From the NCBI GenBank assembly GCA_048213135.1, contig PS015373.1:15645-57510 (forward strand): a stretch of 41,866 bases of DNA, in the 5' to 3' direction. Made by a program: the position numbers and the translations under genes. Position 1 is the stretch's first letter. Each line of letters starts with the position of its first letter. The stretch comes from Reclinomonas americana ATCC 50394. Taxonomy: Eukaryota. Positions 2,474 through 41,428 of the stretch are shown here, piece after piece. Below the pieces are notes generated by a model that did not search any database, was not told where the DNA came from, and saw nothing but the letters and a program-made list of their open reading frames with translations.

Positions 2474-4029
2474 GGCCTCGACAACGACTCCGGCACTCCC
2501 TTCCTCTACACAGAAGCTGTCGAAAGGTGGTCTCGGTCTGTACTCGGTGGTGGAGCGAGCGGCCTCTCTGTTGATCATCAACTCGGCGGTGAAGCTGCTG
2601 ACACACTGCCGACCGCTGACTCGTCGCCGTGTGGCGGAGCGCGCATGCTCCACTGCTCGGTGAAGGCGGCCGGTGGTTGTGTCGACGATTTCTCGCCGCT
2701 GCCGACTGCTGGTTTGGTGGCCAAGTACCCACAGACGAACGAGGTCACAGACGTCAATCGCCAGCAGCTGCCAGTTGCCACGCCGCAGCGGTATTTCTCT
2801 GTGTTGTTGTCTCCTGTTGTTCCCCAGGCTGGTGCTGCTGTGGCTGCTCTTGGTGCAGGTGCTCGCTTCCAAGTGGCCACTGATCCGCATGCCCCTCACC
2901 GCGCTGTTCACTCTAATCTGATGAGTGCTGCTCTCGGGCACGCTCTGAAGTTGGGCGTCAGTGTGGAAGTGCATCCGGCTACTGCTCCGATGGTGGTCGG
3001 ACAGCACTTGGCTGACGGTGGTGTTGTGTTTCCCTTTGCCTCTCGCTTCTTGCCTGCGATGTCACACTTCTACTCCAAGCGCCACATTGCTGGCTGGAAG
3101 GACTTGCGGAAGTGTGGTGCTTTCGTCGACTCCATGACGTGGTGGCTCAGGGCAACGGCATCAGCGAGAAGGAGCAGCGCTCCTTGTGCAAGATGCGAAC
3201 CAACTCCGTCGCGCTCAACAACAAGGTGGCGGTCATCAGCGGCAACCCGGGTGGCCCTGCCTCGCTGTGCCCGCTCTGTGGCAAGGAGTCGGAGTCGCTC
3301 GGACACTTGCTCAACGGCTGTGAAAAGCTGCAGGGCTTGTGGACGACGCGCCACGACAACGTGCTCGACGTTCTCCAAGCGGTTTTGGTGCGGTGCCCCA
3401 AGGTGGACGGTGTGGCGTGCCAGCTGCTGCGCGAGCGTGTCGATGCCGACCTGCTGCCAGCGCCGGCGGACATTGCCAACCACGCCAACTTGGCCAGGCT
3501 CAAGCCGGACCTCACCCATCTGGATTATACCAGAGAGGGGACCGGTGAGATCTGCTCGGTCCAGGTGGTGGAGTTCGCCAACGAAGACTCGGTCAAGTCT
3601 GCTGTCAACGGCAAGAAGGCCAAGTACGAGTCGTTGGTCAAGGCCATCAAGCAGAAGGTCGGCGATCAGGCCAAGGTCGAGCTGGTGGTGCTCCCTGTGA
3701 CCTCGATTGGCACGGCCTCGGCCTTGGTGTCGACTGGCCTCCGTCGTCTCGGCGTGCGCAACGTACGACAGTGCATCTCTCGCCTTTGCACGACAAGCTT
3801 ACGTACAAGTTACTCGATGTTTGTCCAGCGCTGCAAGGGTACCCGGGTGTGCATGGTGGCGCAAGGTCATTCGGTCGGCAATGTGCGTGCATGCAGTCAT
3901 GCACTGTCGGCTCGTGCGACTTTGCCAGATGTGCAGTCTGCAGTGCATACTGGCTGGCACCACCGCGTTTCCGGTGTCAAGACACTTTCCGTTCAGCACC
4001 ACCAGCTTGGAGCGCTGCAGCGCACTTGA
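2474..4029 (+). mobile_element. 3' part of an RLE-clade (R2/NeSL/CRE-like) non-LTR retrotransposon, frameshifted
   Basis: RT thumb-like FLY..KLSKGGLGL (about 2500-2540), W..L..CG...WWL, KMRTN, CCHC knuckle CPLCGKESESLGHLLNGC, RHD motif, restriction-like endonuclease KPDL...VEF...KKAKYESL. No introns. Frameshifts near 2510, 2640 and 3150. The RT core would lie in or beyond the gap 1980-2473. Confidence 0.9.
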
Positions 4030-4220: not shown

Positions 4221-7200
4221 ATGAGCGCAAGTGCCAGCGCCGCTGGCTTAGGTTCGAGTGACCCTTCTGTGCATGAGGATGAGCTCGAGTATGAGCATGC
4301 GGTGCCTGTCGATCACGATCGCGAGGATGGCCTTGGCTCGTCATCGTCCACTCATCTGCGGCGCATGCTCGAGTTTATCGACTCCATCACCGAGTCCAAC
4401 CTCGTCCAGTCAGTGGTACATGGCTTGCTCGTCGCACTCGCACGCGCCGAGGAAGGCGCTCAAGACGTCTCGTGCGAGGCCATTCTGAGAGAAACGGTGT
4501 GTGCATCCTGGAACACGATGCGCATGCCCTATATATGTCACAAATTCCACCTCTCACTCACACCGTCGCCGCGCGCGGGTGCCACGACACGCACGCACAG
4601 CGCTCCATCCTCCAGAGCATGATCACCGCAACCTGGAGTGATGGAGGCTACTACTGTCCGGCCGACGCCGGTCGCAACATGATCGACGTCGAGCAACGTG
4701 TTTCATTTTATGAAACATTCATCGTGGACATGGTCACCAGTTGTGTACACGCACACGCACGTGCACGCACCCGTGTCTGTAAGAAGCCCACATGCACGCG
4801 CGTACACGTTCTACACCCACTTCTTGTGTGACGCGTAATGTGTAATGCGTGCTGTGTAGACTCAAATGACTCACACCACTACTCGCTCTTTCTCCACAGA
4901 ACTGTATGAGCGTCGTCAATCAATGCACGGCGCCTCTGGCAGTGCAGCTCGCGGCACTGCTCACTGGCTGCATTCATTCGGGGCGTCTACGACGCAGGAC
5001 GATTATCGCCTGTTCATTCCTCTTTTCGGATCAAGTCTCACTCTCTCGCACGAGAGATCAACGAGCGACCGGGAGATGACGCCAGCGCGGACGAAACAAC
5101 TGATCGAGCTGTCTCTCATCACCTGCCACTTCCTCGCTGCAGACAGGTATCTAGGTTATCGGTTCTGCATACAGGCGCGCGTGTACAAATTCTCTCTTGC
5201 TCATCACATTACTTCTGTTTGGCAGTAACACCGACAAGCCAGAGCACGATCTGGATGGCATCTTGTACAACTTGACGACGTTGCGCGGCGCGTTTGAGGA
5301 ATTCGGCCGCACGAGCCGAGGGAACGATCGCGAGCTGGCGGCAATGCGAATCGACTTCGGCGGTGAATGCATCGAGGAGTTGGTGGAGCTCGCAGTGCAG
5401 GCATCCTCACCAGTGCGCCTCCTTGCTGTGGTGCTGATGCACGACTTCGTGATGCGCGAGATGCTCGGCGAGATGAAGCGCGCGGCGAAATCCAAGAACC
5501 CCGCAGCTGTACCTCTTGATCTTTGGAGCAGGCCGGTGGAGCTGAAAAGACTGAAGGACGCGGCGCGCTGTCTGGCTGCTGGCGTGTCTGCCGTCATTGA
5601 GGATCTGACTCGGTACTCGTACGCCAGGTAAGCACACACACACGCGCTTTCTTTTGTTATGCACTTGCACTTCCTTGGACTGAGTTGGCCGTCACATGCA
5701 CAACAGACTGCACAACTTGCCAACTGTGACGTGGCAACGTGCGCGGGTGCAGCGACTGAGGGTGAAAGAGAAGCTTTCACGCACGGGTGGGAATTGCAGG
5801 TGCGTACGTTATGGACGCTACCTGCGCCGAGTGCGTGCGTACCGGCGGGCCAAAGCAATTCTCACAACTTTTGTGCGTCGCAGTCGGCATTCTGCGGAGC
5901 ACTGCGGGCGTGGTGCACCACCGTCAACAGCAGTCAAGCTCGAGGTGCAACCAAAAGATGGGTGTACGCACAAGTTCGAGGCGCTGCGACGACACAAAAA
6001 CGGCGAGATCTCCAATTTGTATACGCTGTTCGATGCTCAAATGCAGACTCCGCCTCCGCTGGCATCAGTGGTCGCGCGCGCTGCTGAGGCAGAGGCAGGT
6101 CCGGGTGTTCCCACTCTGCGTGCATTCCCCAACACTGATCATGGCAGGTAAGCATGCAATCGCTACTACAGCTGTGGATACAGCTCACTCGTGCAAGAAG
6201 TTGCTCATTCACTCGAGAAACAAACTGCAGGCGCCAGCACGGACACGATTCGGCGACACATGCGTCAGCAAAACACCTGAGAGACCACGAGTTGCTGCAG
6301 CAAGTTCGACGCGCGGCTTGTGAACGTGCTGCATCGCAGAGTGGCGCAGCTAGCGCTGCTGCAGGTGGGGGGGGGGCGGGATCGCCATCAGAATCCCTGA
6401 TGAGAGCACCCCCACTCGCAAGAAGAAGCGTGCAAAGTCGTCGCCGGAGGCCAAGACGGTATTCGTATGTCTGCCGGCTGTTGTGCGTGTGCACATCAAG
6501 GAAAACACTCACGCGATATTGCTGTGTGCATGATCGATCGGTGCGACGCAGGCAAAGAAGGCGCCGAGCACAGCTGCTGCGCCACAGCCGGCGGAGGTCG
6601 ACGGTCTGCAGAGTCCGCAGCACGATGCACCTGCTCGACGAACTGGTGGTACTCGGAGGGGAACAAGGGGAAAGCGCAGACCCATCCACCACTCTGTCGC
6701 TTCTGGTACCACCGGGCCGGCCGAGCGCGACCACGCGGTGAGTTGTCTCGATCTCTGTCCCTTTGTGTGACTGTCGTCTCTCACACTGAATCGATACCAC
6801 ATCAGCCGGCACCGATGGACACATCGTCGACTGGCGTTGTCTCCAACAGCAGTGGCGGCGGTCACGATGACGGCGGAGAAAGCGCTGGTGGAGCAGCCGC
6901 TGCTGCAAACGAGGAGGAGCAGTTTCACTTTGCTTTTGATCGCGATGACGACGACTCCGACAGCAGTGAAGATATCGATGATGAGGATTCTGACTGCGCT
7001 GATGCTGGTGCAACCACCGAGAAATTGGTGCTCACGGTGCGTCAAAACGGTCGACGACGACTTTGTGCGAAAGTGGTTGTAGATCATCAATTGACTGTTG
7101 TTGTGCGTGGCGCAGGACGGGAGAGTGACCATACCTGGACGGGCATTCAACGATTGCCAGCACGCCGGCCTTGTCGCCTGTACCTTTTTCCGACTTGTGA

Positions 7201-10200
7201 ACATGGTATTTCGAGTGGGTGAGGTGTTCACTGCCGAGGGCAGCGCTGGTGGAGCTGCTGCAACTCGTACTATTATAGACGCAGCCGAAACAATTCCCGG
7301 TCAGCTGCTTCTTGATGACACAAACGCTGCTGCTTTACGCAGCTGGTGTGATGTGCGTCACTGGACTTCTTTTGTAGTCGCCAGTTGGCATGAGTCTGAC
7401 AAAGTATTCTTCTCTGCTTGCAGGAGGCGCGCAAGTTGTTGGAGCCACAGCGGACGAGATCATCTGCACCCGTGCCCATTGATAGTGGTTCTGATCCACC
7501 CGTGGCCACTTCTAGTTCAGCACCCACTGGAGCACCCGCCGCAGCACCCGTGGCAACTGCAGGGGGACAACCAGGAGATGTGCAACGGGTGCATCAGCAC
7601 GGCAAGTTTACTAGTAACCACGTAGTCGTGGCGGCGCGCATCGCCAACGAGAGCCAACGGACGATCTGTGGATTTTGGAGGAATGCCTGTACCTTCTTCT
7701 CACTCTTGGGACATTGCGCTGGACGCATTACTGCTGCGACAAAGGCCCTCATCGCCTGCGTTGCTCTTCTCTCCCGGTCTAGGGACGGGGCGAGACGGGA
7801 ACTCGTATTGTCGGCACGCACCTGCACAGGAGGAGCCGAGCGGGGAAGGTGATTGTGAGCGAGCAACCAGCGCGCGTTCTCGTCCTCTCGTGCCACTCTT
7901 GTGTGACTCTGTGTCTCGGCCGACGGTCAACGCGTCACTCAACACTCCATTTAATGCATCTTCCCTTCGCAGGTTACGTGTGTTTCCGACCACGTTGAAA
8001 ACCATTGCTGCAAGACGGTACCGACTGCGTCAAGGAGCTGCCAAGGGTGCGAAGACGACTGCAAAGAACAGAGACGCGGCAAAGGAGAAGGCGGAGGCTG
8101 CTGGAGCAAGTCACACTGCGAAAAAGTTACGTACGCGCGCCTCCGTGCGTGTGTGCATGCACGAAGGCTGAATGTGCCGACGCCTCTTTTGTCAGCAGAA
8201 AAGGGACGGGGATCTCCAAATTCCGCGCCTCCTCAAGGAAGAAATGCGTGTGGATTCAAGTGGACGATGTCAACATGGGAGATGCGTTCTCTGTCAACTT
8301 CCGGCAGTTCAAGGCCAACAGCAAGAGTGGTGCCGCTGCGGCAAACAGGGAGAACACTGAACCGGCTGTGACGTTGCGTGCGCTCTGACTCTGTTCTTCT
8401 CGTACGCGGGCTGCACATCATCCCTTGGGTGCATTCTCACTCGTTCAGTTGTAATTGTTTTCCTTCTTGCTGCATACCGCAGTGTCAACGTTGGCACTTT
8501 TGACATCGTTGGAGACGAAAATGCCGCTGCGCTCCTCGCCCCGACACGTTCACGCTACGTGCGGGTATTCCTTGATCACGATGATGCCACGGGCAGTACA
8601 AGGTTAGCAATATTAATTGGTTATCATGCACGGGTGAGTTAATGATCTTGTTGACGTGACACGCTCTCATCTCCCTCTCTGTTCTAGAATCACACATGCC
8701 CGGCTGGAAGGAATTCGCACGTACAAGTGTGGCCTCACCGCACCATCACTCGCGTTGGCACACGCTGCTTCGCGCAAGGCAAGCCGCCAGTACTCGCGCG
8801 GCAATTGCGTTGTACGCTGTCGCCCGCGTGTCACCTTGTTGGCCCGCACGAAACACACTGTTGAAATTCAAGCCGATTCTGATACTCTGCAATCTATGTG
8901 GATGGATTTGCAGGTGAGTGTGTGTTCCAGTTGAGATGCAAACAACATACCACTGACACGCGCGTACGAACGCTCGTTCTCGTCGTGCATGCACTGATCA
9001 TCATGCGCGTGATGTGTGTAGACGATTGAGGAGCATTTCGCATCGCTTTCGATCGCATCCACGTCCATTACCGAGACTGTGACGTTCTTGAATCGACTCT
9101 GCGTGCGGNNNNNNNNNNNNNNNNNNNNNNNNNNNNNNNNNNNNNNNNNNNNNNNNNNNNNNNNNNNNNNNNNNNNNNNNNNNNNNNNNNNNNNNNNNNN
9201 NNNNNNNNNNNNNNNNNNNNNNNNNNNNNNNNNNNNNNNNNNNNNNNNNNNNNNNNNNNNNNNNNNNNNNNNNNNNNNNNNNNNNNNNNNNNNNNNNNNN
9301 NNNNNNNNNNNNNNNNNNNNNNNATTGAGACAATGCGTGGAAGCAAGAAGCGAGAGGTGTACTCGGCCGGCCTTGCGGCAGTTGAAACCATTCTGGCAGG
9401 AGTGGTGGGCACGCACCAAGATGCCGGTGCCGGCCCATCAACAACTGCTGCCGCCGGTGCAAGTCAGCAGCATCACGAGCTTGCCCTGGGTCTCGCTTCG
9501 AGCGTCGCAGCAGGCCGTAGATTTGTTCGCGAGTTGCAGCCACTTCTACTGGCTGCGGCGGCACCACCACCACCACCACCACCACCACCACCACCACCAC
9601 CACCACCACCACCACCACCTTTAGTGCCACCTCTGACAGCGCCCGTCATCGTTGTCGGCGACGGCAACAGTGGTGCACCTGACCATGACATGGATCCAGC
9701 GCTATCAGCAGCATGTGCTGCTGCGCAACAAGCTCTCGCTGTCGGTACGAGCATGACGACGCACATGGACGAAGACACAGTCGAAGCTGTGCGTGTCGAG
9801 ACTGGTGAGAACTTGCTGTAAGGATCGTGTTGATATCGCAATGTGCTGACTGCAATATCTCATGCGATCAAACTACTGTGCGCAGATGCAGATGGTGGTG
9901 ACCGTGAGCAAGACGATGCATATGGTAATCGCGNNNNNNNNNNNNNNNNNNNNNNNNNNNNNNNNNNNNNNNNNNNNNNNNNNNNNNNNNNNNNNNNNNN
10001 NNNNNNNNNNNNNNNNNNNNNNNNNNNNNNNNNNNNNNNNNNNNNNNNNNNNNNNNNNNNNNNNNNNNNNNNNNNNNNNNNNNNNNNNNNNNNNNNNNNN
10101 NNNNNNNNNNNNNNNNNNNNNNNNNNNNNNNNNNNNNNNNNNNNNNNNNNNNNNNNNNNNNNNNNNNNNNNNNNNNNNNNNNNNNNNNNNNNNNNNNNNN

Positions 10201-12629
10201 NNNNNNNNNNNNNNNNNNNNNNNNNNNNNNNNNNNNNNNNNNNNNNNNNNNNNNNNNNNNNNNNNNNNNNNNNNNNNNNNNNNNNNNNNNNNNNNNNNNN
10301 NNNNNNNNNNNNNNNNNNNNNNNNNNNNGCAGCAAGTGACGGCAAGAAGAACGGCAAGAAGAGGGGCAAACGGGGCCCCGGCAAGAGCCGAAAACAAGCA
10401 CAACAGGAGGTGGACGGTGTGCAATCATCCATCTTTCATTGCGTCGTTGCAAAACGTGTTGTCGAAAGCAGCAACTGATATTATTGTGTACTGCGCAACA
10501 CACAGACACGATTGAATACCATATCACTGGAGCAGTTTGTCAGGCCATCAACCTCATCGGCCAAGCGCCCGGCGTGGACATCGACAGTGAATGCGCACGT
10601 ATTGCAGATGCTCTTCTCTCCGAAATCGATCGAGCCCGTGGACTGGAGGAGGGCATGGCCGACGATGACGGGCGTGAGCAGGAGGGTCGCCAACTTGTGC
10701 AACTCCGACTCGACCGTGCCTCAAGTGCTCTGCTGACTGTCGTCGCCGCGTTCAACAAAGTGTCATTGTCACTCGTGGCATTGTGCCACATAATGCATGG
10801 TGTGCATGTAGCTGGCGTGTGTTTATCTGTCTTGTTGATGTCGTGTGAGCTGACGGTGCGTGCTTGTGCTTGTGCTTTTGCGTGCGGCTTTCAGCGCTGA
10901 GAACCGGCGGCGAGTGGCACTCGCGATCGTACACAGCTGATGGGCATGAAGTGCAGACGCTTGGGGACGACCGCGTCAATCGCTATCTCCGATCTGCAGC
11001 TTGTGTTCTTGACAGTGCACAGGCAGAATTAGGTAAGTTGGCATTGAGACGCGTCGACACAATCCTCCTACCGCACGGATATTATTGCTCACCACCATTT
11101 TCCTCATCACCAATGCACAGAGTCTGCCATCGGCAGTCTCAAATACCGATGCAAGCAAAAGCTCGCCAACAACCGCGACATGGAGATGGGGGAAGACAAG
11201 GCTACCACCAACAACGACGACGGCGACCACACCAATGGCCAGGACGATCGCAACGAAGGAGACATGGCTGCGGAAGTTGATCCAGAAACAGCAGCAGCGA
11301 GTGCAGATCAAGAGGCGGCTGATCGATATCGCATCGCGCTGCTTGAAGCAGATGCCGCATCCATGCTGATGCAGGTGCAGGCAGAGGAGCCAGAGGAGTC
11401 GGACGCCACCGCTGATGAACAAGACAACGAGCCTGAAGAAGATGGTGAGCTGACGCATGTTGATTACTCGCAGCTAATCGCCTCTGCTGTGATCTGACAC
11501 GATGATGATGGTTGGTGTATATATGCAGCTGCTCCCATTGGTACATTGTACACCAGTCAAATGCAGCACATCACCATGGGCGAGGTTTTGCGAAAGGCTA
11601 CTCGTCCGTTGTTGCAGTCTTTTGTGAGTGACTGCGTCGCACGGATGTGCGTGCGGGATGCCGAAGACGAAGGACAAAAATCGGTGCAGGCTGAGCTCTT
11701 TTCAACATTCACCGCGGTTGCCCGAGACGCTGCGAGGCTGTTGATGTCGCGAAAAATGTCGACTGCACCTGATGCGCGAGCGGTGTTCCTGGCAGACGCA
11801 GTTCTCAAGGCTGTCAGCAACACAATCGCTCGTGCCGACCCCGATGGTGAAACGCGTCCGAATGGTGTTGATCGAGACGGCGACGACGATGGCTGTGATG
11901 ACGATCTACATTCGGGTGTTGATGTTGAGGCCGATGGTGGTGGTGGTACGCAACAACAATATCAACAACAACAACATGCTTCCCAATCAAGTGCCGGCAC
12001 TGCTGCGGGGAGTGGTGGTGAGGACGAGCACATCATGGACGTGGATGGTGTCATGGCCAGTGCAACCGGATCTGGTGCTGTGCTCCAGTCGGCGTCGGAT
12101 GCACGAACGCCCACTGCGATGCAAGTTGATGGCAGTAGCAGCAGCGCCCACAACAATGCAGACAAGACAGCACTGTCGAAACCGGTGCGACTTGCCGCGA
12201 AGCGATGTGCGTATGATGGGCAGCGAGTTCCTAACTATCACTCTTGCAGTCGATCTACATCTTTCCTCTTGTACATCTACAGACAGTGCTGTTCTTCTTT
12301 GGTCTACTAGAAGCAGCTGTTCTAGGGTTTTATGTGTCTTGCACGAGTCCACCACGTTTGTACTGTATTGGCATTGGTGTTGGTGCTGTTCAGTGTTGTG
12401 CGCGTGCATGTGCTATCATTTGTGCAGCATGCTGTACAACGTGGTATTTACTTCGTTTCGTGGTGGTTGTTGTTGGGTTTGTTGTTGTTACTGTTGTTGT
12501 TGTTGTTGTTGTTTCTATTGCTGTTGGTAGTGTCGGTGCACCACTGCGAAAGTATGTTAATTAATACCGTTGGGGTTTTTTCATCTGTTGACAGTGCGTT
12601 GGTGGTACTATGGTCCGGTGGTGGTGCTC

Positions 12630-12667
<38 letters not shown>

Positions 12668-15600
12668 GCCAATGACGGGGAATGTGCATCAGTTTTTTCT
12701 TGCTGGTTCTTCTTCACCACATGTTCGCACTTTACAATGTCTTCCATCTGTCGCCGTTCATTACCACTGTGCTCGATTACTGACTCCTCCTCCCACCCTT
12801 TGTCCCAGTCTCCGACGCGATGAGCAGATGCGTAGCGGTGAGTGTGCGACGGGAACGACTTGCTCGCACCGCGCTTCAACATCACCACGCCGCGAGTTTC
12901 TCACAAGCGATTGCAAGCGCAACTGGTGCCGTTGCTCTGGACGACGGGAACCGGTACCGCAAATATGCCACCCTTGTTGAGTCGCGAGAAGCACTGGCAG
13001 CTGCTGAAGCGGCATGTGGTAGTCGACCGCAGATCACAGAATTTGCACGGGCAGCCCATTCAACGGCAGCCGATCTGTCACGCTCAGCCACGTGTGATGT
13101 GGAGTCATTTGAGGAGTGCATGTATGCAGCGGAGAATGCGCTCGACGATGCTGCGTCTGAATTCATTTCTGTCGCCGTTCACACCGCCCGACAGTTTTGT
13201 CAGTCGCGACCGTCATCAGCTGGTGACGGTTCTGCCACATCAGCAGCGCCTCCGACGCCGCCGTCGTCTCAGCATGGTGTGCTGATGGAGAAAATCGCTG
13301 CCTCCAACATGCGGCTTGCGAAGCCGTCGCCAATGCAGGCACATCTCACTGCCGCCGGATTTGTCGACTACTTGCTGTGCACGGTCGTTGGAGTCCAGCA
13401 CGGATCAGACGGCGCAGCAGATGCAATGTACCACGAGCACGTACGGCTTGGATTGGAACGGTCACTGCGAGCGGCACTGTCGCATCGACCGCTGAACGCC
13501 ATCATCCCTGCCGGTTTGTGTTGACTCGGTGTATATATGTTGTTGCTTGCCTCTGCAACTAATAACATCATCATTTTTTGTTGCCAGAGCTGCTGGCGGA
13601 AGTTGCCAATGGTGGTGACGACTATGGCTCTTCGTTGCCTTGCAAGCTGCTGCGACAGCAACTTCCTGCGATTAACAGGCTTGTGCTGTTCGCCAATCTT
13701 CTGCGCCGACAGCTCCGGTACAAGTTCCGCACTCTTGTGCTTGCCGCCAAGAGCATAGCAGATCCAGTGGCGGACATCGACTTGTGCTGGTTGACCTACT
13801 TGGATGCACTGGCGAGCATCGTGCCGTGTACTCTGTCGGTCGACGGTGTCGTGCGCGTGACAAGTGGAGGAGTGTCAGCGCATTTGCAGATGCTGGCACG
13901 AGATGGCGAGAGGAACTCGAACGCATTCTCTCTCGGCTCGTTGTGTGATGAAACGACGACCATCGCACGCGAGCTGCTGCGCGTGAGAAACCTGCTCGAC
14001 AGCTGCATCCTATCCTTTTCGACATGTACATCTGGATCCACTGCGTCAAACGGAGATACTGGTGCAGCAGCAGGGTCTTCTCTGCATCTGTCGGTGTCGT
14101 ATCTGCGAGGACTGTTGTCGCGCATTCGATGTGATCAATCACATGTACAGCCAATGCATGTCGATGATGCCGACACCGACGATGCTGGTCATGCCAGTGC
14201 AGCAGGTGTTGGTGGAGGTGAGACTGGTGTTGTCGTCACTTGTTGTGCATGTATCGATCACTGTTGCATGCATCGGTCTACCACCAGCGGTGTACTTATT
14301 CATCGTCTCTCTGCAGTCACTGCAACAACTCAAGCCACGTCGACAAGCAGTGCACGCATGCGTGCGACGGCGGCTGCCGGTGGCGTTGGCGATTGTGATC
14401 ACAGACTTGACCGTGATGGGAGGTCACGTGGTGACCGAGGTGTGTATCACATTTGTGGATCGTGCGCTGCGCACAGCTTGTTTGTTTGTTGACACACTAT
14501 CTTTTTTTGATTCGCTCGCAGTTGCGAGAGACGACAGTGGTGGTGGTAGCGGTGATGATGGGCGCCAGCTGCACATTTCCGCCGTCGATTTGATGTTCTT
14601 CTTGCACGACGACTTGCCTCGGCTGTGGGTGGCCCTCCTGGGCGACACCACTGCGGATCCAGATGCTGATGCAGTCCAGCTCAACAAGCTCAGTCTGGAC
14701 ATCGATTCTGAGGAGAGACAGCACGTGGTTCACGCCTTTCGCCGCGTTCAGTGGGCTGTGCTTGGCGGCGCTGGGACACAATTTTGGAACTCTCCTCTTT
14801 CTACTGCCACCAACAGTGACGGTGAGCGCACCATATAGTGTGCTTGGTCAGTTGTTGGTTGCATGCATTGCTCATCAGAATGCACCTCTAGATGGCGCTG
14901 CAGATGGTTGTGCCTCCAGTTCCATGGCATCGGCAATGCGCGACCATCATGCTGCAGACATCGAGGACTTTATGGATGGCGTCAACGCACTGTGTGATCG
15001 ACTGCATGCGCAGTCGTCGGCGCCAGCTGCGGCGGCAGATTCACTACTATCGACTGCTGCGGCATCGCAGATGCCATCTCGGTCATCGACGACTGTTGAC
15101 GCGTACCGAGCCTGTGCACTGGTGACTCGAAGGCTTGCCGTTACACTGAGCAAGGCGGCACATGATGCAATGCGATCACTAGAAAGAACTGGTCCGTGTG
15201 ACTGACCGCCAATGGCAAGCTGATTGTGTTTGTGCTGACTGTGGCGCTGACCTTCTCATTGCACAGAATTTGGCGATCGATTCAAGTGCTGGAAGCAACC
15301 GGCCGCGGCATCACAAGAGGTTCTGCAAGCTGACGCAGTGGCGGCAGCTCAATCAGATGGCGACATAGGCACGCTGTACATGTGGCTTTGGAGACCTGAA
15401 CTGATCGCACACTCCCATTTCACCGTGCGAGCGGCGATGGACGCTGCTGCTGCATCCACCTTGCCACCATCAGTGTGCGACTGGACGCTGCAGGAATATC
15501 TGTGCACGGTTGCGGCAATCGTCGATTCACAATTCATGCTCATGCCAGATGGTGGTGGTGATGGTGGTGGAGTCGAGGAGAAGGAATGGCTGACCTCAGC

Positions 15601-16156
15601 ACCTGCTGATGACATGCTGCCACTAGTACTTCCACCGGCTCGAATAATTGACTGCGACGGCATCGTGCTGACGACGGCACGTGCTTATCTTGTGGGAGTC
15701 GAGAACGACATCGATGCGTGTGGGAGTCGAGACGGCGTCACGGTGTGCGCACTGCCGCCCTGTACTCAGAATGAGGATGACAAACAGGTTGCTATTACGC
15801 GCCTTCGAAACTCCTATGACCGCTTGTTTCGGATGTGGACAACACATCGTCTGCAATTGGGACCGGCGTCCTTGCTGCAGCGCATGCAGCCACGTTCCGC
15901 ATCGGTGGCCACGACTGCTGCCGCTCTACCACCATCGCCTGATGTTTCTGTTATTATCGATGGAAGTCGAATAACTGTACAAGTTCATGCCGCGGCTGAG
16001 GGTGAGGGTGAGGGTGACGGTGGCGGTGACGGCGATCATGAGGGTGAGGCGTCCTTGGTGCAGCACATGCAGCCGCGTTCCGCATCGCCTGATGTTTCTG
16101 TTATTTTCGATGACGCTCGAAAAGTTCATGCCGCGCGCGCGGCTGAGGGTGAGCTC

Positions 16157-16187
<31 letters not shown>

Positions 16188-19100
16188 ACGGTGACGGTGA
16201 CGGTGACGGTGTTCATGAGGGTGAGGGTGCCGGTGGTGCACCACGACGCGATAATTGTTATATGATACGCGAGTCGCTTGGGAGACTGGCGGATGTGTGC
16301 TCTGTGTTCATCGACAAGGCGTCAAGTCGTTTACACGACACGGGCACCGACACTCAACTGCAATCCGGCGGATCCACTGCGGAGTGTGGTTCCACCGCTA
16401 CTGAGCGCATGCGGTTGCGCTCTCGTGTCACCGACTCTGATCATGATCAGCAATTTGCGCTGCGAGTGCTTCTACCTGAGGCCGGTTGGCTCGCATGCTC
16501 ATCAGTGTTGGTGCGCACCGCACATCAACTTGCGCCACTCTTCTCTGCTGCGGCGGGTCATGAAACGTCGACACTGTTTGCTGCTGAGGAGGAGAAGTCT
16601 AGTGCGCTGCTGGATGCACTGCTGACGTCGGGTGCCAGCTGCGACATTGATCACCGCCACCGTATCTTGAACTGTGGCGGCCGCGGTGCCGAATGCACCA
16701 GGTGCATGCTGAGGACGAAGATTGACGGGTTCACGGCCGAAAAAACAGCGTTGAAGGCGTTATCAGATCACATCAGGATACTTGATGCTATAGCATGTTG
16801 CGTCGTGCATCACCACAAGGAAAAGAGAAGGGCAGACAGATAATAGTTTTTTTCAGGGAGCATGACAGATCTAGAGTCATGCATTCTGAGACCGAGGGAT
16901 GTCTCACCCAACTGTAATGCTTGTTGCAGGCGCTGTGCAATCGGAACGCAGTACTGCATTGCTGCTTGGCAGGCAAGACGCCCTCGGCGTGAGCGTACAG
17001 GCCGCAGCTGCAGGACACAGACACTTGCTGCCGGCACACGGCAATTGCAATGTCACCAACCAACACCCTCTGGATTTGCGACATGCGAGACTCATGCATA
17101 TGGAAGAGGGTAAGTGTGTAAGTAGAATGGGTTTCCTCTCACGGTAGTTGCTGTACTGTTGTCAGCGTGAGCACGCTCTGCTGTCGCCTCGCACTCTTCA
17201 GTGCGTTGAGCACTTAACTATGTATTTTTCTCCGTGATTGCATTCTAGTTTTCTGTTCCGGTCGCTTGCTGCACTTCCTTGTGTCGTCTCTGCAGCTTCC
17301 ATGTGTGGGGTGGAGTCAATAATAATTCTCTCGTCGCCCTCTTTTCTGGTGTCCCTCTTCCTGCAATGCTCGTTGCAACTGACAGTACGCATCATGATCA
17401 GTTCACGAATCGCTGCTGCGATACACGAACAGTTTGAGCTCGAGCATTTTGACACCAGTGCACTGGTGCACTGGTAATCGTCAGCTAGAAGTTGTGCATT
17501 CTCTTGAACAGCGTTTAGTTGCAGAAAGAAAGCACATGAGATTTGCTGGCGATCTCTGGTACGCTGCGATGATTCTCATTGCTGTGGACGGATCAGAGCG
17601 AGTTTGTTTTCCACGTGCACATCCGTTGTCATCAGTTCTGTGGGTTGTTCTGTGGGTTGCGTGCTCAGCATCTCCCTCTCTCTCTCGCTCTCTTCTCGCT
17701 CCCTATCGATGGACTGCCTTTCGCACCGCCTCTCTGTTAGCTGAATCATTCTACTTGCGCAGTCACGAAGCCGACGAGCGTGGTGGCAGGCCTGCGGCAT
17801 GTTGCCTTCACGCAGTCCGAGCAACTCATCCGGTACCTCGTTACTACCAGAAACGAGCACCGCGGCCGGTACCGGGCTGCACATACACGTGGTGGCGCCG
17901 AGGATGACCGCGATGGCCACGCTGACAGCAACAGTGGTGTTGACCCAGCGAAGCCACCTGCCATGCTCGCGTCGATGCCGCCGATCGCGACGTCGATTTC
18001 AATGGAGCCAAAAACCGATCATCAACACTACTTCGGGGCGAGGCGGTCGTGTCGAAGATATGGTGAGACTATCAACAATGAGCGAGTACGGTTGCGATCA
18101 CTTTGCTCATTGTCCTCATGTCCCAGAGTTGCTGAGGGCACGGCGGGGTCTCATTTCCATGGTAACGTGGCTTCGCAATCATCATTCCGTCCGTGCTGAG
18201 GTGTCGCCTGCAGCCGCGCTTTCGGGCGGTAGTCGAAGGCAGCGGCGAGGTCGTCGACACCGGCGACACGGCGGCGGTGGTGGTGGTGGTGGTGGTGAAC
18301 CTGCTCCTGTTGCCGATCCCGGTGCTGCTGCTCCTTCTGCTGCTCCTACTGATGCAGCCACTGGTGCTGGTGCTGCTCCTGCTCCAGTTGTTGTCACTGG
18401 TGCTGCTGCTGCCGCTGTTGCTGCCGCAATTGCTTCCGCTGTTGCTGCCGCCGCTGCAGGTGCTGCTGCTGGTTCCACCACTGGTGCCGTTGCTGCAGCT
18501 GGCGGCGACGACGACGACGATGATGATGGTGGTGATGTCCACATGCACGCGCCTGACTGCAGCAGCGATGATGGCAGTGGCGACGACCATGGAATCATGC
18601 ACGTCGATGGCAATGGTGATGGCGGTCGGCTTCTCGATCGGGGTGTCCCCGTTGCTCTTATTGTGGACTGTGATGGTGGGAGTGAGAGTGGTTCAGCAGC
18701 TGCTGATGTCATGCACGTTGATGGTGATGGTGATGGTTGTGGTGGTGGCGCACCGCACATGTTCATGCATGACGACGTACACACGCACACCGAAGAGAGA
18801 GTTGAAGGCAATGCTGGTGCCGATGGATACGGTGACTGTGGTGGTACCGGTGACAGTGGCGCCGGCTGTGGCGTTGGTGATCTGACCGTGGTGCCCGGGC
18901 CCGCCGGCATTGAGGAGGGTGGTAAGAAGGGTGCAAGTGCATCGGCTTCTCCGGCGACTGAGCACTGCCCCTGCTGCTGTTCGTGCACGTGGATGAGCGT
19001 GTTCAAGGATTCCGACTGTCTGGTTTGCGGGCTACCATTCACAGAGTGCCGTGGGAGGCATTCACGAGTGGAGAAAGCCTGTGGGGTGTGGAAGACTACG

Positions 19101-20440
19101 GACGAATCGAGATGCTTATGTGGGCTCGACAAGGGTATTCGTTGCTATGTATCCGTGGCCACCGCTGGTGAGTTCAATTGCACTGCTCTCTTTCTCCCTT
19201 CCTCTCTCTGCATTTTGTTATCTGTGTCGAGTTTCCCCATGGCTACCACCGACTTCCTCACTGTTCGTCTCTTTTTCTTTCTCTTTTGTGTCTCTACAAC
19301 CTCACACAACCTGCCGTTGTGTATATTGATATTCATGTCCCATTCCACTCTGCAGGCGGCAATGTCGGCCGGTGGGAGATTGTTTATTTTGGTGACGGAT
19401 TCGCCGAGAAGTGCATTCTTCCCGTGCTGCGTCAGCAGGCTCGGTTGCGACGCATTCTTGGTGATTTCGGAGGTCTCGTTGACAAGGGTGTTCGCAAAAA
19501 ATACGAGCGTCGACTGGCGAACACCACCCGCAAACTGAGAGCGAAGCGCTACAACAATGCGCGCAACTTTGTGGACCAGTTGCGTAACAGTCGTTGCTCC
19601 ATCCTGTTGCTGTTGACGTCTGCGGGTACTGACGCGCTGTGCATGTGCGCGCACGTGAAATAATGCAGGGTGGTGGTCGTCCACGCTGTGGTGGCGGATC
19701 CCAACTTCTCTGCCTCGATTTCAGACATGTCGCAGCGAAAGAAGTTCGTCGCAGTCGGCGACGATGGGCTGGCGGTGTTGGAGCGACTGCTCAGTGTCGA
19801 CAACGTGATGAAACTGCAGTACTCTGGATTCGGCGACCAACGACGTGACATGAAGTCAGTGGTGCGTGCGTCTCCTCCTTGCTAGCAGGCCGATATCGAT
19901 CGCAGCAAGCGGCACTTACCCACGCAAGCACGCTCTCTCTCCTTCTGCGCGCGATCGCTTGCAGGAAGCCAAGGCACGAGTGTGTGCACAGCACGATGCG
20001 TCGTTTGCTAGATGGGTGCGGAGGGAGGTCAGCGAGGCCGGCTCAACTTCCCGCTGCGTAGCGTGCGGCAGGTGGCGCAAGGCTGGCCCGAAAAAGGAAC
20101 TCGTCTGCAGCAACACCGAATGCCCGTTGCACAACGCACCCGTGCCTCGCGACGGAAGCTCCGGTTTTACCATCGCACTGCACAGTCTGAAGGTGGTGGA
20201 TGTGTCGCGCCTGGTGGAGGAGAAGAAGGACGATGATGCCGACAAGGGCGGCAAGAAGGGTGGCCTCGGTGGCAAGAAGGGTGGCCCCGGTGGCAAGAAG
20301 GGTGGCCCCGGTGGCAAGAAGGGCAGCAAGACGGGTGGCACGGTGGGCAAGAAGAGTGGCAAGACCGTTGGAGGGAGGAAGCGTGAGCGCCCTCTGTCGT
20401 CGGAATCAGCATCTGACTCCGATCCATCAGAGAAGGATTC
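4221..20440 (+). CDS. Fanzor2: Giant multi-exon Fanzor2 (IS607 TnpB-like) protein, about 3,800 aa, 3' end in gap
   Basis: Phase-compatible GT-AG exon chain: 4221-4496, 4601-4739, 4900-5146, 5226-5627, 5707-5799, 5884-6147, 6231-6458, 6552-6737, 6806-7036, 7116-7352, 7424-7848, 7973-8125, 8196-8372, 8483-8602, 8688-8913, 9022-(gap)-9804, 9886-(gap)-10416, 10506-10799, 10895-11032, 11121-11444, 11529-12206, 12809-13513, 13588-14217, 14317-14439, 14522-14821, 14892-15191, 15267-16631, 16930-17109, 17763-18062, 18127-19167, 19356-19578, 19669-19861, 19965-20440+. It needs one extra base in the G10 run at 6367-6376 and continuity across two N gaps. Confidence 0.72.
7622..8913 (+). CDS. WED/REC-like N-terminal module of the Fanzor2 protein (sub-region)
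   Basis: Ordered motifs resembling IS607-TnpB/Fanzor2 N-termini: VVAARIANESQRTICGFWRNAC (cf. RixPxxeQkxxLxxW), LRVFPTTLKTIAARRY (cf. vPxxikxxA, 7986-8009), ISKFRASSRKKCVWIQVD (cf. kFRSrKxxxxxxi, 8218-8265), then beta-strand-like exons. Matched from memory of the family, not by alignment. Confidence 0.6.
9562..9619 (+). repeat. (CCA)n coding repeat (poly-Pro)
   Basis: About 19 Pro codons inside an exon of the giant gene. Confidence 0.95.
12466..12668. repeat. Intronic (GTT)n microsatellites
   Basis: GTT tracts at about 12466-12512 and 12630-12668 in the 602-nt intron 12207-12808. Confidence 0.9.
15865..16226 (+). repeat. In-frame direct duplication of ~180 bp within an exon
   Basis: Copies 15865-16047 and 16048-16226, both ASLxQxMQPRSAS..PDVSVIxD..VHAA..EGEGEGDG..HEGE. 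Confidence 0.9.
19110..20190 (+). CDS. RuvC nuclease plus C4 zinc finger of the Fanzor2 protein (sub-region, 4 exons)
   Basis: Spliced product CGLDKGIRCYV...EIVYFGDG...LRQQARLRRIL...RKLRAKRYNNARNFVDQ...VVADPNF...DMSQRKK...VEAKA...EVSEAGSTSRCVACG...LVCSNTEC...PRDGSSGFTIAL. RuvC-I Asp 19128-19130, alternative Glu 20034-20036, Cys at 20055/20064/20106/20121, RuvC-III Asp 20151-20153. Introns 19168-19355, 19579-19668 and 19862-19964. Confidence 0.9.
20247..20322 (+). repeat. 21-bp coding tandem repeat (GGKKGGP/L) in the Fanzor C-terminal tail
   Basis: ggtggcaagaagggtggcccc, about 3.5 copies, followed by the basic stretch GGRKRERP. Confidence 0.9.
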
Positions 20441-20593
20441 NNNNNNNNNNNNNNNNNNNNNNNNNNNNNNNNNNNNNNNNNNNNNNNNNNNNNNNNNNNN
20501 NNNNNNNNNNNNNNNNNNNNNNNNNNNNNNNNNNNNNNNNNNNNNNNNNNNNNNNNNNNNNNNNNNNNNNNNNNNNNNNNNNNNNNNNNNNNN

Positions 20594-23500
20594 AGCAGCC
20601 ACGTCGTCGATCACGCTCCCTCCATCGCAACAAAGACGACGATCGGCAGTGGAAGGCGTGGATCGAGAGCGAAGAAGATCGACTGGGAACTCGTCGTCAT
20701 TACGATGACGACGACGACGATGACGACGATGATTACGATGATGATGATGATGGCAGTGATCGCCGTGATGGAGCAAGCGACTTTGATGATGGCGACGATG
20801 ACGATGATGATGAGGGCAGTGATGGTCGGCGATTTCGTCGGCTGTCGGCGACACTGGGACGAGTGTCGTGGGACGCCAGCGAACCCGATGAGTACGCCAG
20901 GAGGAGAACATCGCGTCGGCGATCGTCGGCAGTGCCGGAGTTGCCGTCGTCGCGGGGTGGCAAGCGAGGAGGAGGAGCGAGAGGGCGAGAGAGCGAGTGG
21001 ATGCAGGCAGTGAGCCAGGAGATTGCCAAGGCGCGCGCGGATATGCATCTCACCATCTCGCGCCTCAGCAACGTGAATGCCGAGTTGAGGGAGCAGCAGG
21101 CGGCCGCTGATCATACGGTGGCGCAGTTGCGGTCGGAGCTGGCCGACCGAATGGGGGAGGTGTCGGCGCTGAAGGAGCAGTTGTCGCGGCGGGCGCCCAG
21201 CGAGGAACTGACGAACAAGGGTTCGATGGTCGTGCGAGCGGGAGTGGTGGTGTGTGTTGCTTTAGTTGACTGTTTGCCGCGCAGTTGTCGACTTGCAGCG
21301 GGAGCTGCGGCAGCGTGATCAGCACCTGCAAGACACCGTCTCCAAACTTCAACACATGACGCACCAGTATCGACAGGCCGACGACGACAAGCAGATTGTG
21401 CAGAAACGATTACGTGAGGCGCAGGAAGTGATGGAGACGCTGCGGCAAGGTGTGCATCTCTGTCTCTCTCTGTGTACTTTGCCGGTTGGTTAACGACAGG
21501 TGTGATTTGCAGAAAAGGAGACGCAGCTGATCACCGTGCAGCGCTCGTACGAAACGAGAGTCGCCGAGCTGCAGAGCGGACTGAGTGAGCAAATGGCGAT
21601 TTGTACGCGCCAAGAGCTCGAGTTGAAACAGGCACGATCGCAGCTGGCCGGCACCAATTCGCTGCAGAAACAGTATGCGCTGGCGCAGGCACAGTGGGGC
21701 GTTCGGTGGGTTTCTGTGACAAACGCCAGTGTGGCCTGTGATGGGTGCTGTCTCACATTGCAGGCGACGCGTGCAACAGAGAAAAGGAAAATGAGGAGCA
21801 CATTAATGCGCTGCAGCACGAGCTGAAGCAACTGGCGGTGCAGAAAGATCAAGAACTGCGCGACGTTCGAATCTCGCTGGGTGCCGAGGTGGAGGCGGCG
21901 CGCAAGGATGCCGAGCGTCGGTTCGACATGCTCACATGCGTCTCCGCCAGCACAAAACGACGTTGGTTTTCTCATCTTCTATCCCATGTCGTGCGATGTG
22001 ATGCAGGGTGCGGGTGGCCGAGGAAATGCTGCAGCAGGGCACATTGCGTGCCGAGCAACGCGTGCGGGAGGTGGAGCTTCGTGTGCGCAAGGAGGCCACC
22101 AAGATCCAGTCGCTGGTCACGAAATTCAAGGGCAAGGAGGAGGAGCTGTTGGCGCTCAAGGAGGAGCGTGTGCGTCTGGAGCGGCAGGCGTCGAGCATGG
22201 AACGCGACGCACGGGCAGCAAAGAAAACCATTGCCGAGTTGCAGACGGAGCTGGACGAAGCAAGCAAGGTACGCGCACGCGTGTGTGTGCGTGTGCGTCC
22301 TCATTTGTTGACACTCGGTGCAGAAATGTGCAGAGGAAAGTCGCGAGGCAGAAAACTGCCGGACACGTGCGCGCCAGGCTGAGTCGCAGCTCGAACTGGT
22401 GCGCGAGCGTGACAACAGCCGGCTGGCGCAGTTGCAAGAACAGGCGGCCAATGCCACTCGCGAGTTGCAGGTGGCCAACGAGCACGCCGCGCAGCACCTG
22501 GCCGAACTGCAGCGGGAACACGAAACACGGACGCGCGACCTCACCGCCTCGTACGAGCACCGTTTGGAGGAGTCAGCGCAGCGCGAACAGACTGCATTGT
22601 CGCGCGCCAAGCGCGCCGAGCGGCGACTGAAGACGCTTGAGGTGTGTTTTGCCACGCGTGTTTGTGTGGTTTCCTCATCTCAACGTCTTATCCCACGCCC
22701 CGTGACAGTCACAACTAAAGGAGGCCGAAGAGGAGCAGGCGCGCAAGCAGCAGCTGATTGACGAGGACCGCGTCTCACATCGGCAAGTGGTGGAAGGCAT
22801 GAAGCAGCGACTCAACGAGGCCCAGTCACGCATCCAGACACTGGAGGAGGACTTGCGCACCGCCGAGGCCAACCTGGAGGAGGCGGAGACGTGGAGGCGA
22901 CAAGTGAAGGAGCGGCAACAGAGCGAGGAGCGTGCGCAGCGCGAATTGCAGCGCTTGCAACTGGAGTTGACACGCACTGTGGAGGCTGGCGAGGCGTTGC
23001 AGGCGCAGCTGGCGAACGCCGACAGGTATGCGGACTCTGTCATCGCGCAAGTATTTTGACGATTCACTTACATGTGACTGGCAGTCGCATCAAGGAGTTG
23101 GAGCAGGCGCTGGCGCACGAGACCAAGCTTCGCGGTGAGGTCGCGCGCAAGAACACGGAGCTGGGCACGCGGTGCTTGCGGGTACGCGGCGTTTTTATCG
23201 CTTGAGGTGGGTGACATGCTCACCGCACCGAAAATTATAACGTGCAGGCGGAGGAGAAGGCGCAAGAGGCTGCACTCGTTCTGGAGGCGTTGCTCAGCGA
23301 GACACGCAGCCATGCATCGCCAGTTGCGTCCATCGCAATCGATGTTGACGCGGACAAATACTGATCTCCCTCGCCTTGTGCAGGCCTTCCTCAAATCGTC
23401 GCTTCTCCTAAAGGAGCTCATGCCACCCACCGAGCCAGTGTCGGTACTGGTGGGAGAGCCGCCCACCTCCAAAGTCACGTCTGTCAAGAGTGAGGCAGCT

Positions 23501-24166
23501 TCGCCGGTGCGCTCGTCGCCTCCAAAACCACCACGGCTGGCGTCGCCGCCGAAACGAACCGCAGCGCCGGCGGTGATCTCCAGTGTGACCTCGGCGGCCG
23601 CAGTGGTTGCGACAATACCCGTGGAACCGGAGGAACAGCAGAGTTCGGCTCGAGCACTGCAGAGTCGAGAGGAGCAGCGTCGCATCCTGCAGGAGCTGGC
23701 GCAAAAAGCCAACCTGACTCGCCACGCCGACTCGCACGTGTCGCCCACTGCTCCGGCCTCGGTGACTGCAGTGGCAGGCTCACCGCAACGCTCACCGGCT
23801 GCTGGCAAGGCAGGGTCGCCAGGTCATCGACAGGCGCAGGCGCAGCAGCAGCCAGCTGGCGTCGACTCTGACGGTGACGCCGATGACCAGGTGTTGTTTG
23901 ATGCGGAAGCCGAGCAACGATCCACCAAGTCCGCGCGCCGGTTGCCTTTCAGTGCCGGATCGAGTGGCAGACGACCGTCGCACGCTGACGCCTCCGATGG
24001 CGACGAGGGCGACAGTGAAGGCGACAGCGAGCACGATCGTACTCGACGGGGTCCAGTGCGGCGGCGCTCACTGGAACGGTCATCGCTTCTCGGCACGTCA
24101 GCGCAGCGCCGCTTGAGTGCAACATTGCGCGATTTATCACAAGTGACCGAGCGCTCGGTGTGTTGA
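20594..24166 (+). CDS. Multi-exon long coiled-coil protein with acidic N-terminal and Ser/Pro-rich C-terminal regions; 5' end in gap
   Basis: Successive E/Q/R/L/A-rich heptad-like exons (e.g. EQRVREVELRVRKEATKIQSLVTKFKGKEEELLALKEE) separated by short GT-AG introns; TGA at 24164-24166. Family not recognised. Confidence 0.75.
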
Positions 24167-40080: not shown

Positions 40081-40426
40081 GAGTGTGTGTGTGTGAGAGA
40101 GACGAAATCGTCGCAAATTGGTCAATCACTTCTCTTGCGCTTCCGCAGCGGCGGGGGTGTTGTTTCTCTTAGTCCGTTCTTGATGAGAAGAATGGTGACG
40201 CCGCGTCGGTGGTGACTCGAGCACACGCTGCTCTGCTGAGGATTGCTCAGTCACTTTGAGTCGGGCATCTCTTCACTCCACCTCTGTGAGGTGCGTTGAC
40301 GCAGTAGCCCACGGTGTCTGCAGCTGTGTCTCACGCCTCGCATTCACCTCTGCAGCTGGCCATGGGCAACAAGCCAGCGCGAATTTTTGGTTGAAGGCGT
40401 GGTGCTCTCAGTTTCCTTGCCTCACT

Positions 40427-40476
40427 ATGAGCGCAGCATCTGCTTCGGCGTCATGCACGAACCAGTCGCGCGTCCA

Positions 40477-40507
<31 letters not shown>

Positions 40508-41196: not shown

Positions 41197-41428
41197 NNNN
41201 NNNNNNNNNNNNNNNNGCTTGGTTGGAAACTGCAATTTCTATCGATATTCTGCATGTTTTGCACTGCATGCAGCAACAGTGATCTTACATGCTCACTCAT
41301 CTTTGACTGCCATGCAGGTCCAGCGTTGGCGGTGGTGGTGCGCTCTTGAAACGAAGTACAAGACCACATTTGCTCTCCGAAATTTTGACTGTAGGCGGGC
41401 GTGGTGCTCCCGGCTTCCTTGCCTCATG

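Follow-up and report, generated by a model that had tools for sequence, protein, structure and literature searches.

A 41,866-nt stretch of the genome of Reclinomonas americana ATCC 50394 (contig PS015373.1, positions 15,645–57,510; hereafter the window, with positions counted from its first letter) raises the question of whether a eukaryote encodes a giant RNA-guided nuclease or a gene of ordinary size that has diverged far from its relatives. The initial annotation read the plus strand at 4221–20440 as a single Fanzor2-type gene of ~3,800 residues, in which WED and REC motifs at 7620–8910 were separated from a RuvC domain and zinc finger at 19.1–20.2 kb by an insertion of ~2,300 residues. 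The analysis presented here favors a different arrangement. A Fanzor-like nuclease module at 19.1–20.2 kb is, judging from the predicted protein, probably real. The likeliest reading, to which we give about even odds, is that the stretch at 17.1–20.44 kb constitutes an ordinary-sized, intron-rich, highly divergent multi-exon TnpB/Fanzor-like gene. The upstream open reading frames (ORFs) at 4.2–16.8 kb most likely belong to one or two orphan genes of their own, and do not form an N-terminal extension of the nuclease or an insertion into its core.

A probable TnpB-like zinc ribbon hidden by introns

Objective family support is limited to the last exon of the module (19965–20231, plus strand, 89 residues). 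The sole Pfam match of this exon is PF07282 (Cas12f1-like_TNB; E = 0.058, 14.0 bits), with residues 20–53 aligned to positions 20–48 of the 60-position profile, and its sole NCBIfam match is NF040570 (guided_TnpB; E = 0.096), with residues 21–63 aligned to positions 339–379 of 389. Both matches sit at the correct profile positions and would be worth roughly 1e-5 to 1e-6 if the family had been named in advance. A protein-language-model comparison (Atlas) placed the exon at 0.90 to PF07282 clusters from eukaryotes and giant viruses, and the best matches that have a family share the PF07282 family or clan in ten cases out of ten. Additionally, a phmmer search of the PDB ranked the zinc ribbon of Cas12p (9jfs_A) fourth among 12 weak matches (E = 0.88), while PHROGs returned one weak match to a family of unknown function. 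As a positive control, E. coli TnpB matched PF01385, PF07282, and PF12323 at 1e-13 to 1e-35. At the level of the predicted protein, the zinc-ribbon/RuvC-III exon resembles the TNB region of TnpB. The RuvC and zinc finger that the initial annotation placed here are therefore retained in part: a zinc ribbon of the TnpB/Fanzor type, together with the Asp of RuvC-III, has support ranging from a lead to moderate, and all of the matches fall below cut-off.

Four exons at 19.1–20.2 kb join in phase via canonical splice sites, across introns at 19168–19355 (GTGAGT..CTGCAG, 188 nt), 19618–19668 (GTCTGC..ATGCAG, 51 nt), and 19862–19964 (GTGCGT..TTGCAG, 103 nt), all on the plus strand. This fits the earlier suggestion that introns conceal the zinc ribbon and RuvC-III. 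The large first exon of the four (18127–19167) contains a low-complexity Gly/Ala/Asp insert of ~217 residues (18225–18875), a Cys-rich stretch, a ‘gkWy’-like strand (19077–19100) located 22 codons before RuvC-I, and the RuvC-I-like motif G-L-D-K-G (19122–19136, with D-K-G at 19128–19136). The exon at 19356–19617 carries a basic helix (19493–19582), as is found after RuvC-I in TnpBs, and the exon at 19669–19861 carries a hydrophobic RuvC-II strand (19670–19708) that ends in A-D-P, with a Pro where canonical TnpBs have the catalytic Glu. The last exon supplies an alternative Glu (within 20022–20057), the zinc ribbon CxxC-x13-Cx4C (20043–20123), and the RuvC-III R-D pair (20148–20153), such that the joined product ends E-x6-CxxC-x13-Cx4C-x9-D with the Asp inside the R-D pair. 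Read across the splice junctions, the order of D-x-G, basic helix, and [ST][ST]xxCxxC..C..C..RD is TnpB-like, and the candidate catalytic residues, in the numbering of the compact model described below, would be D440, E628, and D667. A Lys/Gly-rich basic tail (20223–20440), which may resemble a nuclear localization signal (NLS), runs into an assembly gap at 20441–20593 with no stop codon before it; the gene end formerly set at 20440 is the edge of that gap.

The Cys-rich stretch just upstream of the RuvC-I motif (18963–19049) has about nine Cys in 29 residues; it may be noise, or else an additional zinc finger placed within the WED region.

Published signatures of TnpB and Fanzor proteins

TnpB and Fanzor proteins have been defined by the pattern D-X(125,275)-[TS][TS]-X-X-C4-X(5,50)-RD (Bao & Jurka 2013, PMC3627910). 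The spliced model contains this pattern with X = 190, a result that relies on inferred splice sites and in which the second Cys pair is Cx4C. The zinc part of the pattern occurs in one of the 907 six-frame ORFs of the window, exactly at the last-exon site, and residue shuffles produced at least one such match in 29 of 300 sets. The hallmarks described for Fanzors are a DPG in RuvC1 (‘near exclusively’) and a Glu that precedes the zinc finger by six residues (PMC10711439). E628 lies exactly six residues ahead of the first CxxC, which is the Fanzor ‘Ealt’ position, and a relaxed form of the full Fanzor pattern (x up to 200, Cx2-4C, x4-10) matches residues 440–667. A relaxed pattern of Ealt plus zinc finger was found in one of the 907 ORFs and in 15 of 300 shuffles.

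Fanzors in which Pro or Gly replaces the canonical RuvC-II Glu have been reported (Jiang et al., PMC10530073). A co-linear hhalign alignment set the Pro of the window protein on the canonical Glu column, with [ST][ST]xxC and R-D in register, which fits the published change of Glu to Pro or Gly, although the alignment itself is not significant (P = 0.12).

Relation to Fanzor2, Fanzor1, and prokaryotic TnpB

The label ‘Fanzor2-type’ attached by the initial annotation is unsupported, because a Fanzor2-type protein should be easily found by TnpB profiles, yet the window protein scores nothing. A TnpB profile of six sequences found the PDB entry 9b0l, ‘TnpB-like protein L79’, at 4.8e-16, and this chain is one which we take to be the mimivirus Fanzor2, ApmFz2. 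The Pfam scan gave no match to the helix-turn-helix family PF12323, a Fanzor2 trait, nor to PF01385, and no IS607 TnpA or recombinase domain was found among the scanned window ORFs. The window protein does share with Fanzor2 (Acanthamoeba polyphaga mimivirus ApmFz2; PMC11832414) the order of Asp, alternative Glu, zinc finger, and Asp, with the zinc ribbon inserted in RuvC. Conversely, Fanzor2 is close to TnpB, whereas the window protein is missed by TnpB profiles and lacks PF12323, and the window gene has introns and no IS607 TnpA among the ORFs scanned; the Fanzor2s tested by Jiang et al. were without introns (PMC10530073).

The likeness to Fanzor1, of which SpuFz1 of Spizellomyces punctatus is an example (PMC3627910; Saito et al. 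2023, PMC10432273), covers several features. Fanzors are described as compact proteins of ~600 residues that have gained introns (Jiang et al., PMC10530073), and published text describes their N-terminal halves as highly variable. By these descriptions the window gene shares with Fanzor1 a eukaryotic host, introns, and a variable N-terminal half, and its predicted protein shares a basic, NLS-like segment, the placement of the alternative Glu ahead of the zinc finger, and a position beyond the reach of TnpB profiles. It departs from Fanzor1 in having DKG instead of DPG, a Cx4C second Cys pair, and the low-complexity insert of ~217 residues before RuvC-I. No Fanzor-named chain was present among the 33 PDB matches of the TnpB profile, an absence that fits the ~15% identity reported between Fanzor1 and TnpB (PMC3627910). 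The divergence of the window protein would, as predicted, be Fanzor1-grade or greater.

Among prokaryotic TnpBs (ISDra2, 8exa/8h1j; E. coli K-12 IS609-type), the resemblance extends to a core of ~400–470 residues once the insert is subtracted, a RuvC-I motif ~200 residues in, and the [TS][TS]xxCxxC and RD motifs. In contrast to these proteins, the window protein lacks the canonical RuvC-II Glu and reaches only 14 bits of PF07282, against 1e-13 to 1e-35 for E. coli.

Extent of the gene

In the compact model the gene runs from ATG 17094 to the gap edge at 20440, and would encode at least 762 residues, ~217 of them of low complexity, with five introns. The frame stays open over all six exons (762 codons), with no stop or frameshift. 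The tentative first coding exon (17094–17109, plus strand, its ATG inferred) ends at a strong donor (agg followed by GTAAGT) and is followed by a putative first intron of 653 nt (17110–17762, GTAAGT..GCGCAG) that could be partly intergenic. The exon at 17763–18062 (frame 2 of 3) includes a stretch at 17792–17839 that by eye looks like a TnpB N-terminus, and an intron of 64 nt separates it from the large exon at 18127–19167. The segment 17765–18196 matched no family in Pfam, NCBIfam, or PHROGs, and the N-terminus-like stretch is without profile support. A 20-nt inverted repeat, 80% complementary, is positioned exactly at the donor (17110–17129) and acceptor (17747–17766) ends of the 653-nt intron; it may bring the splice sites together by pairing, or be the trace of a small insertion, and its 10-nt exact core is near the chance level.

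When the 217-residue insert is removed from the compact model, the RuvC-I Asp becomes residue 223 of a 473-residue core; the corresponding Asp of ISDra2 TnpB is presumably near residue 190. This spacing is close to the TnpB layout, with a strand motif of its own ahead of RuvC-I, and therefore the insertion of ~2,300 residues between WED and RuvC-I formerly proposed is not needed.

Several features suggest a boundary near 16.85–17.1 kb, none of them decisive. A double stop (TAA-TAG, 16841–16846) ends an ORF of 530 residues and is followed by ~250–900 nt of poor coding. The G+C content at third codon positions (GC3) is 0.63, 0.73, and 0.73 in three RuvC exons versus 0.50–0.55 in the upstream ORFs. 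The unrelated Sas10-like and RCC1-repeat genes of the minus strand lie no more than ~570 nt apart, and the other introns seen measure 51–188 nt versus the 653 nt needed at 17110–17762.

The initial annotation had taken a phase-consistent chain of exons as the sign of one giant gene of ~3,800 residues. That chain does open at a plausible ORF, as claimed for ATG 4221, but it crosses runs of N at 9109–9323 and 9934–10328, over which the reading frame is lost, and has to splice out the double stop, and phase is cheap in this DNA. With a weak intron penalty, a dynamic-programming gene finder threaded 349 exons over the whole plus strand and 222 over 24 kb of the minus strand; since such chains are threaded everywhere, a phase-consistent chain is not evidence for one gene. 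The gene finder was itself dropped as a line of evidence, as its models shifted between runs even with stronger penalties, skipped the zinc-ribbon exon, and chose wrong frames in the low-complexity stretch. Codon-usage log-odds were rejected for having no discriminating power. TGTAA was considered as a poly(A) signal given two copies after the 530-residue ORF (16913 and 17117), and was set aside as the motif does not follow the other gene ends of the window.

Directly after the gap at 20441–20593, the plus strand at 20594–24166 holds coding-like ORFs with acidic runs and coiled-coil-like sequence, and a weak match to ADIP (E = 0.0028). These ORFs may be either a continuation of the Fanzor-like gene or a gene of their own, with the gap lying between.

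Weighing the alternatives

A number of results weigh against a compact Fanzor-like gene. Both family matches of the last exon are under the curated cut-offs (14.0 bits versus 26.3 for PF07282, 11.9 versus 100 for NF040570), and a longer piece that includes the tail (19854–20440) is without any Pfam match. A TnpB hidden Markov model (HMM), built from 23 of 24 chosen loci (E. coli K-12 and IMG/VR, one dropped for a stop), gave negative scores for the spliced C-terminus and for the full spliced model; its best value against the 907 six-frame ORFs was E = 0.47 in an unrelated frame, with the proposed exons not prominent. Its best domain, not significant, falls on the exon at 19356–19617 (profile positions 206–224), and it should be noted that the HMM is not ideal, as all 23 sequences carry the canonical Glu. 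The top hhalign alignment (P = 0.0024, probability 12%) sets the TnpB zinc ribbon on the Cys-rich stretch at 18963–19049. Neither WED nor REC was detectable, the segments 17765–18196 and 18900–19166 and the exons at 7.9–8.9 kb being without a profile match. The DPG hallmark of Fanzors is replaced by DKG, and both versions of the strict Fanzor pattern, D[P or not P]G-x(120,160)-E-x6-CxxC-x(12,18)-CxxC-x(4,8)-D (PMC10711439), fail, with 185 residues versus 120–160, Cx4C versus CxxC, and nine residues versus 4–8 before the Asp. No homologue of the last exon was found among 166 candidates or in viral, genome, and metagenome contigs, and HMMER found no match for the 474-residue exon at 17745–19166 among 1.84e9 proteins. 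The start codon of the model is putative, and its 3′ end lies in the gap. Finally, a phase-consistent link connects 15251–16796 to 16930–17109 (donor GTTGCG at 16797, an intron of 133 nt, acceptor TTGCAG at 16929), and the exon at 16930–17109 continues through the GTAAGT donor and the 653-nt intron to 17763–18062 and 18127–19167 with all joins in phase.

This link speaks for a fusion or domestication, in which the Fanzor-like module would be the C-terminal domain of a protein of 2,000 to ~3,800 residues assembled from the orphan ORFs upstream, the RNA-guided nuclease domain having been captured by a host protein. The gene finder, when kept from crossing gaps, prefers one gene at 10655–20386, the AT skew is T-rich across 11–20 kb, and the exon at 17763 begins mid-codon and so requires an upstream exon. 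Set against these points are the unreliability of the gene finder, which also over-threads, an intron far longer than those seen elsewhere, a double stop that must be spliced out, and a GC3 that is lower in the upstream ORFs than in the RuvC exons; a fusion that reached back to 4221 would have two assembly gaps to cross. TldRs, bacterial nuclease-dead transcription factors derived from TnpB (bioRxiv 10.1101/2023.11.30.569447), offer a precedent for a TnpB tamed to a host function, as a fusion would imply, but TldRs are prokaryotic, compact, and catalytically dead, whereas the window protein would keep all of its presumed catalytic residues and no host function is indicated. Among the titles and abstract openings listed by full-text searches for Fanzor, no giant, fused, or domesticated eukaryotic Fanzor was seen, though supplementary data may hold longer or similar forms. 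A fusion of this kind is in our judgment unlikely, and its specific form, in which the ORFs at 10.6–16.8 kb are spliced onto 17763–20440 to give an orphan giant of 2,000 residues or more, with an apparently catalytically complete nuclease domain captured by the host, is improbable. A further alternative is the split core of the initial annotation, with WED and REC at 7.6–8.9 kb and RuvC at 19.1–20.2 kb held ~2,300 residues apart. Its four upstream exons (7974–8913) do join in phase and by eye show TnpB-like strand patterns in the expected order, but by no measure is the product TnpB-like: Pfam, NCBIfam, and PHROGs returned no TnpB family for any of the four pieces, and the spliced product had no hmmsearch match to TnpB and an hhalign P of 0.29. 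Between the first two motifs, the helical part taken for REC spans only ~50 residues and is mostly of low complexity, RuvC-I is preceded by a strand motif within its own exon, the two halves are separated by two gaps, and the region at 4–9.1 kb is unlike that at 9.3–24.2 kb (no similarity; best blastp E = 0.028, to an unrelated frame). A split core is accordingly extremely improbable.

Two further explanations were weighed. The Cys-rich, basic C-terminus of an unrelated protein could mimic a TnpB zinc ribbon by chance, as every family match is sub-threshold, the TnpB HMM and hhalign are non-significant, AlphaFold2 gave the last exon alone a predicted local distance difference test (pLDDT) score of 46.4, and shuffled proteins reach 0.9 in the Atlas in 4–10% of cases by the tool’s own figures. 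However, the hypothesized family is the exon’s sole match in each of two libraries, aligned to the corresponding end of the profile, and both the Atlas and the PDB search agree with it; moreover, the Ealt spacing, [ST][ST]xxC, R-D, and upstream D-x-G all fall in sequence, at distances that the looser published signature allows; a chance resemblance is considered quite improbable. Comparably doubtful, if by a shade less so, is a decaying relic, meaning a once-mobile Fanzor copy that is nuclease-inactive and not under selection. The replacement of DPG by DKG and of CxxC by Cx4C, the stretched spacings, the large low-complexity insert, and the failure to find terminal repeats or retrieve relatives would all suit such a relic. 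A search for terminal and inverted repeats found microsatellites and short chance-level pairs only, and no convincing transposon ends in the window. A decayed copy is harder to reconcile with a frame open over six modelled exons, canonical splice sites, and the presence of all three presumed catalytic residues.

Potential function and implications

If the compact Fanzor-like gene is functional, its catalytic set would comprise the RuvC-I Asp (in G-L-D-K-G), the alternative Glu that precedes the zinc finger by six residues, and the Asp of R-D. As in Fanzors, the protein would bind a guide RNA arising from the 3′ end of its own locus, and this RNA would direct the RuvC site (D440/E628/D667) to cut matching double-stranded DNA beside a short motif, and the Lys/Gly-rich tail at 20223–20440 could serve nuclear import. 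Such Fanzor-like activity would hold unless the gene has decayed or been tamed.

Should the compact model be correct, the locus would add one more Fanzor-like gene, but an outlier, with five introns, a DKG, an odd zinc finger, and a disordered insert of 217 residues, and with a divergence so great that standard TnpB profiles miss it. This suggests that surveys relying on stop-to-stop ORFs and TnpB/Fanzor HMMs under-count the intron-rich, fast-evolving Fanzors of protists. Should a fusion be correct, the locus would hold the first host protein of a eukaryote to be organized around a module of an RNA-guided nuclease, a case relevant to whether eukaryotes, like bacteria, have tamed OMEGA-type systems; in its giant orphan form it would be without precedent as a domesticated or fused Fanzor and would greatly exceed in size all those described. 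Such a claim is not justified by the present evidence.

The upstream stretch

The plus strand at 4.2–20.4 kb is, by its predicted frames, coding-like but orphan. Its longest frames are at 15251–16843 (530 residues) and 17745–19538 (597 residues). The 5′ part of the flagged chain (4221–7973, from ATG 4221) consists of orphan ORFs with no family, and one of these, at 5155–5628, had no homologue among 2,277 candidates. The four in-phase exons that had been read as WED and REC (7974–8125, 8199–8372, 8483–8602, and 8688–8913, plus strand) are separated by introns of 73, 110, and 85 nt and are plausibly coding. The run of long, helical-looking orphan ORFs at 10655–16846 that ends at the double stop is probably a separate gene, and in the Atlas its 530-residue ORF was unrecognized, with hypothetical clusters at 0.82–0.85. 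No curated family was matched at cut-off among the plus-strand ORFs scanned (10 + 10 + 10), eight pieces, and ten minus-strand ORFs, which gave weak unrelated matches only; for the ten minus-strand ORFs beneath the nuclease-like region, none reached the Pfam cut-off and three had weak unrelated matches (E = 0.036–0.095).

Just upstream of ATG 4221, an ORF at 3016–4026 (plus strand) has a weak match to zf-RVT (E = 0.0028, below cut-off) and by eye a CCHC knuckle can be made out in it, with a restriction-endonuclease-like motif after the knuckle. These features suggest that 2477–4029 is the 3′ end of a non-long-terminal-repeat retrotransposon of the R2/NeSL/CRE type.

Genomic setting

The window is 55–60% G+C and contains eight runs of N in its 41,866 bases, of which those at 9109–9323, 9934–10328, and 20441–20593 are relevant to the flagged chain. 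By its introns and neighboring genes the DNA is eukaryotic. Introns in this organism are GT..AG and about 50–190 nt long, as in the RCC1-repeat gene (31021–32282, minus strand), which is visibly split by GT..AG introns of ~52–62 nt. Pfam identified RCC1 repeats (1.8e-23), a HECT domain (1e-16; 38187–38927, plus strand), and a protein kinase (6.8e-10; 37258–37707, plus strand) in neighboring ORFs, while an Rfam search matched no family.

A Sas10/Utp3-like ORF (32857–34272, minus strand) provides a gauge for the homology searches. It found 15 relatives, none above 43% identity in its best local alignment, and the ten with a query coverage of 45% or more are 31–43% identical. Because it found no match to itself, the proteins of this organism are evidently absent from the collections searched, and therefore every absence of a homologue reported here is to be read with that caution; the missing self match says nothing on annotation.

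The T-rich AT skew extends over the whole of 11–20 kb. Triplet and dinucleotide microsatellites occur at 9552–9619, 12437–12677, 15981–16236, and 31740–31833, and include (CCA)n coding for poly-Pro, (GTT)n, GGTGAG/GGTGAC coding for Glu-Gly/Asp-Gly, and (CA)n in introns. Toward the end of the window, a tandem duplication (40396–40780 and 41398–41779, ~1-kb spacing, 92–93% identical) also doubles an ORF with a basic, Ser/Thr-rich N-terminus.

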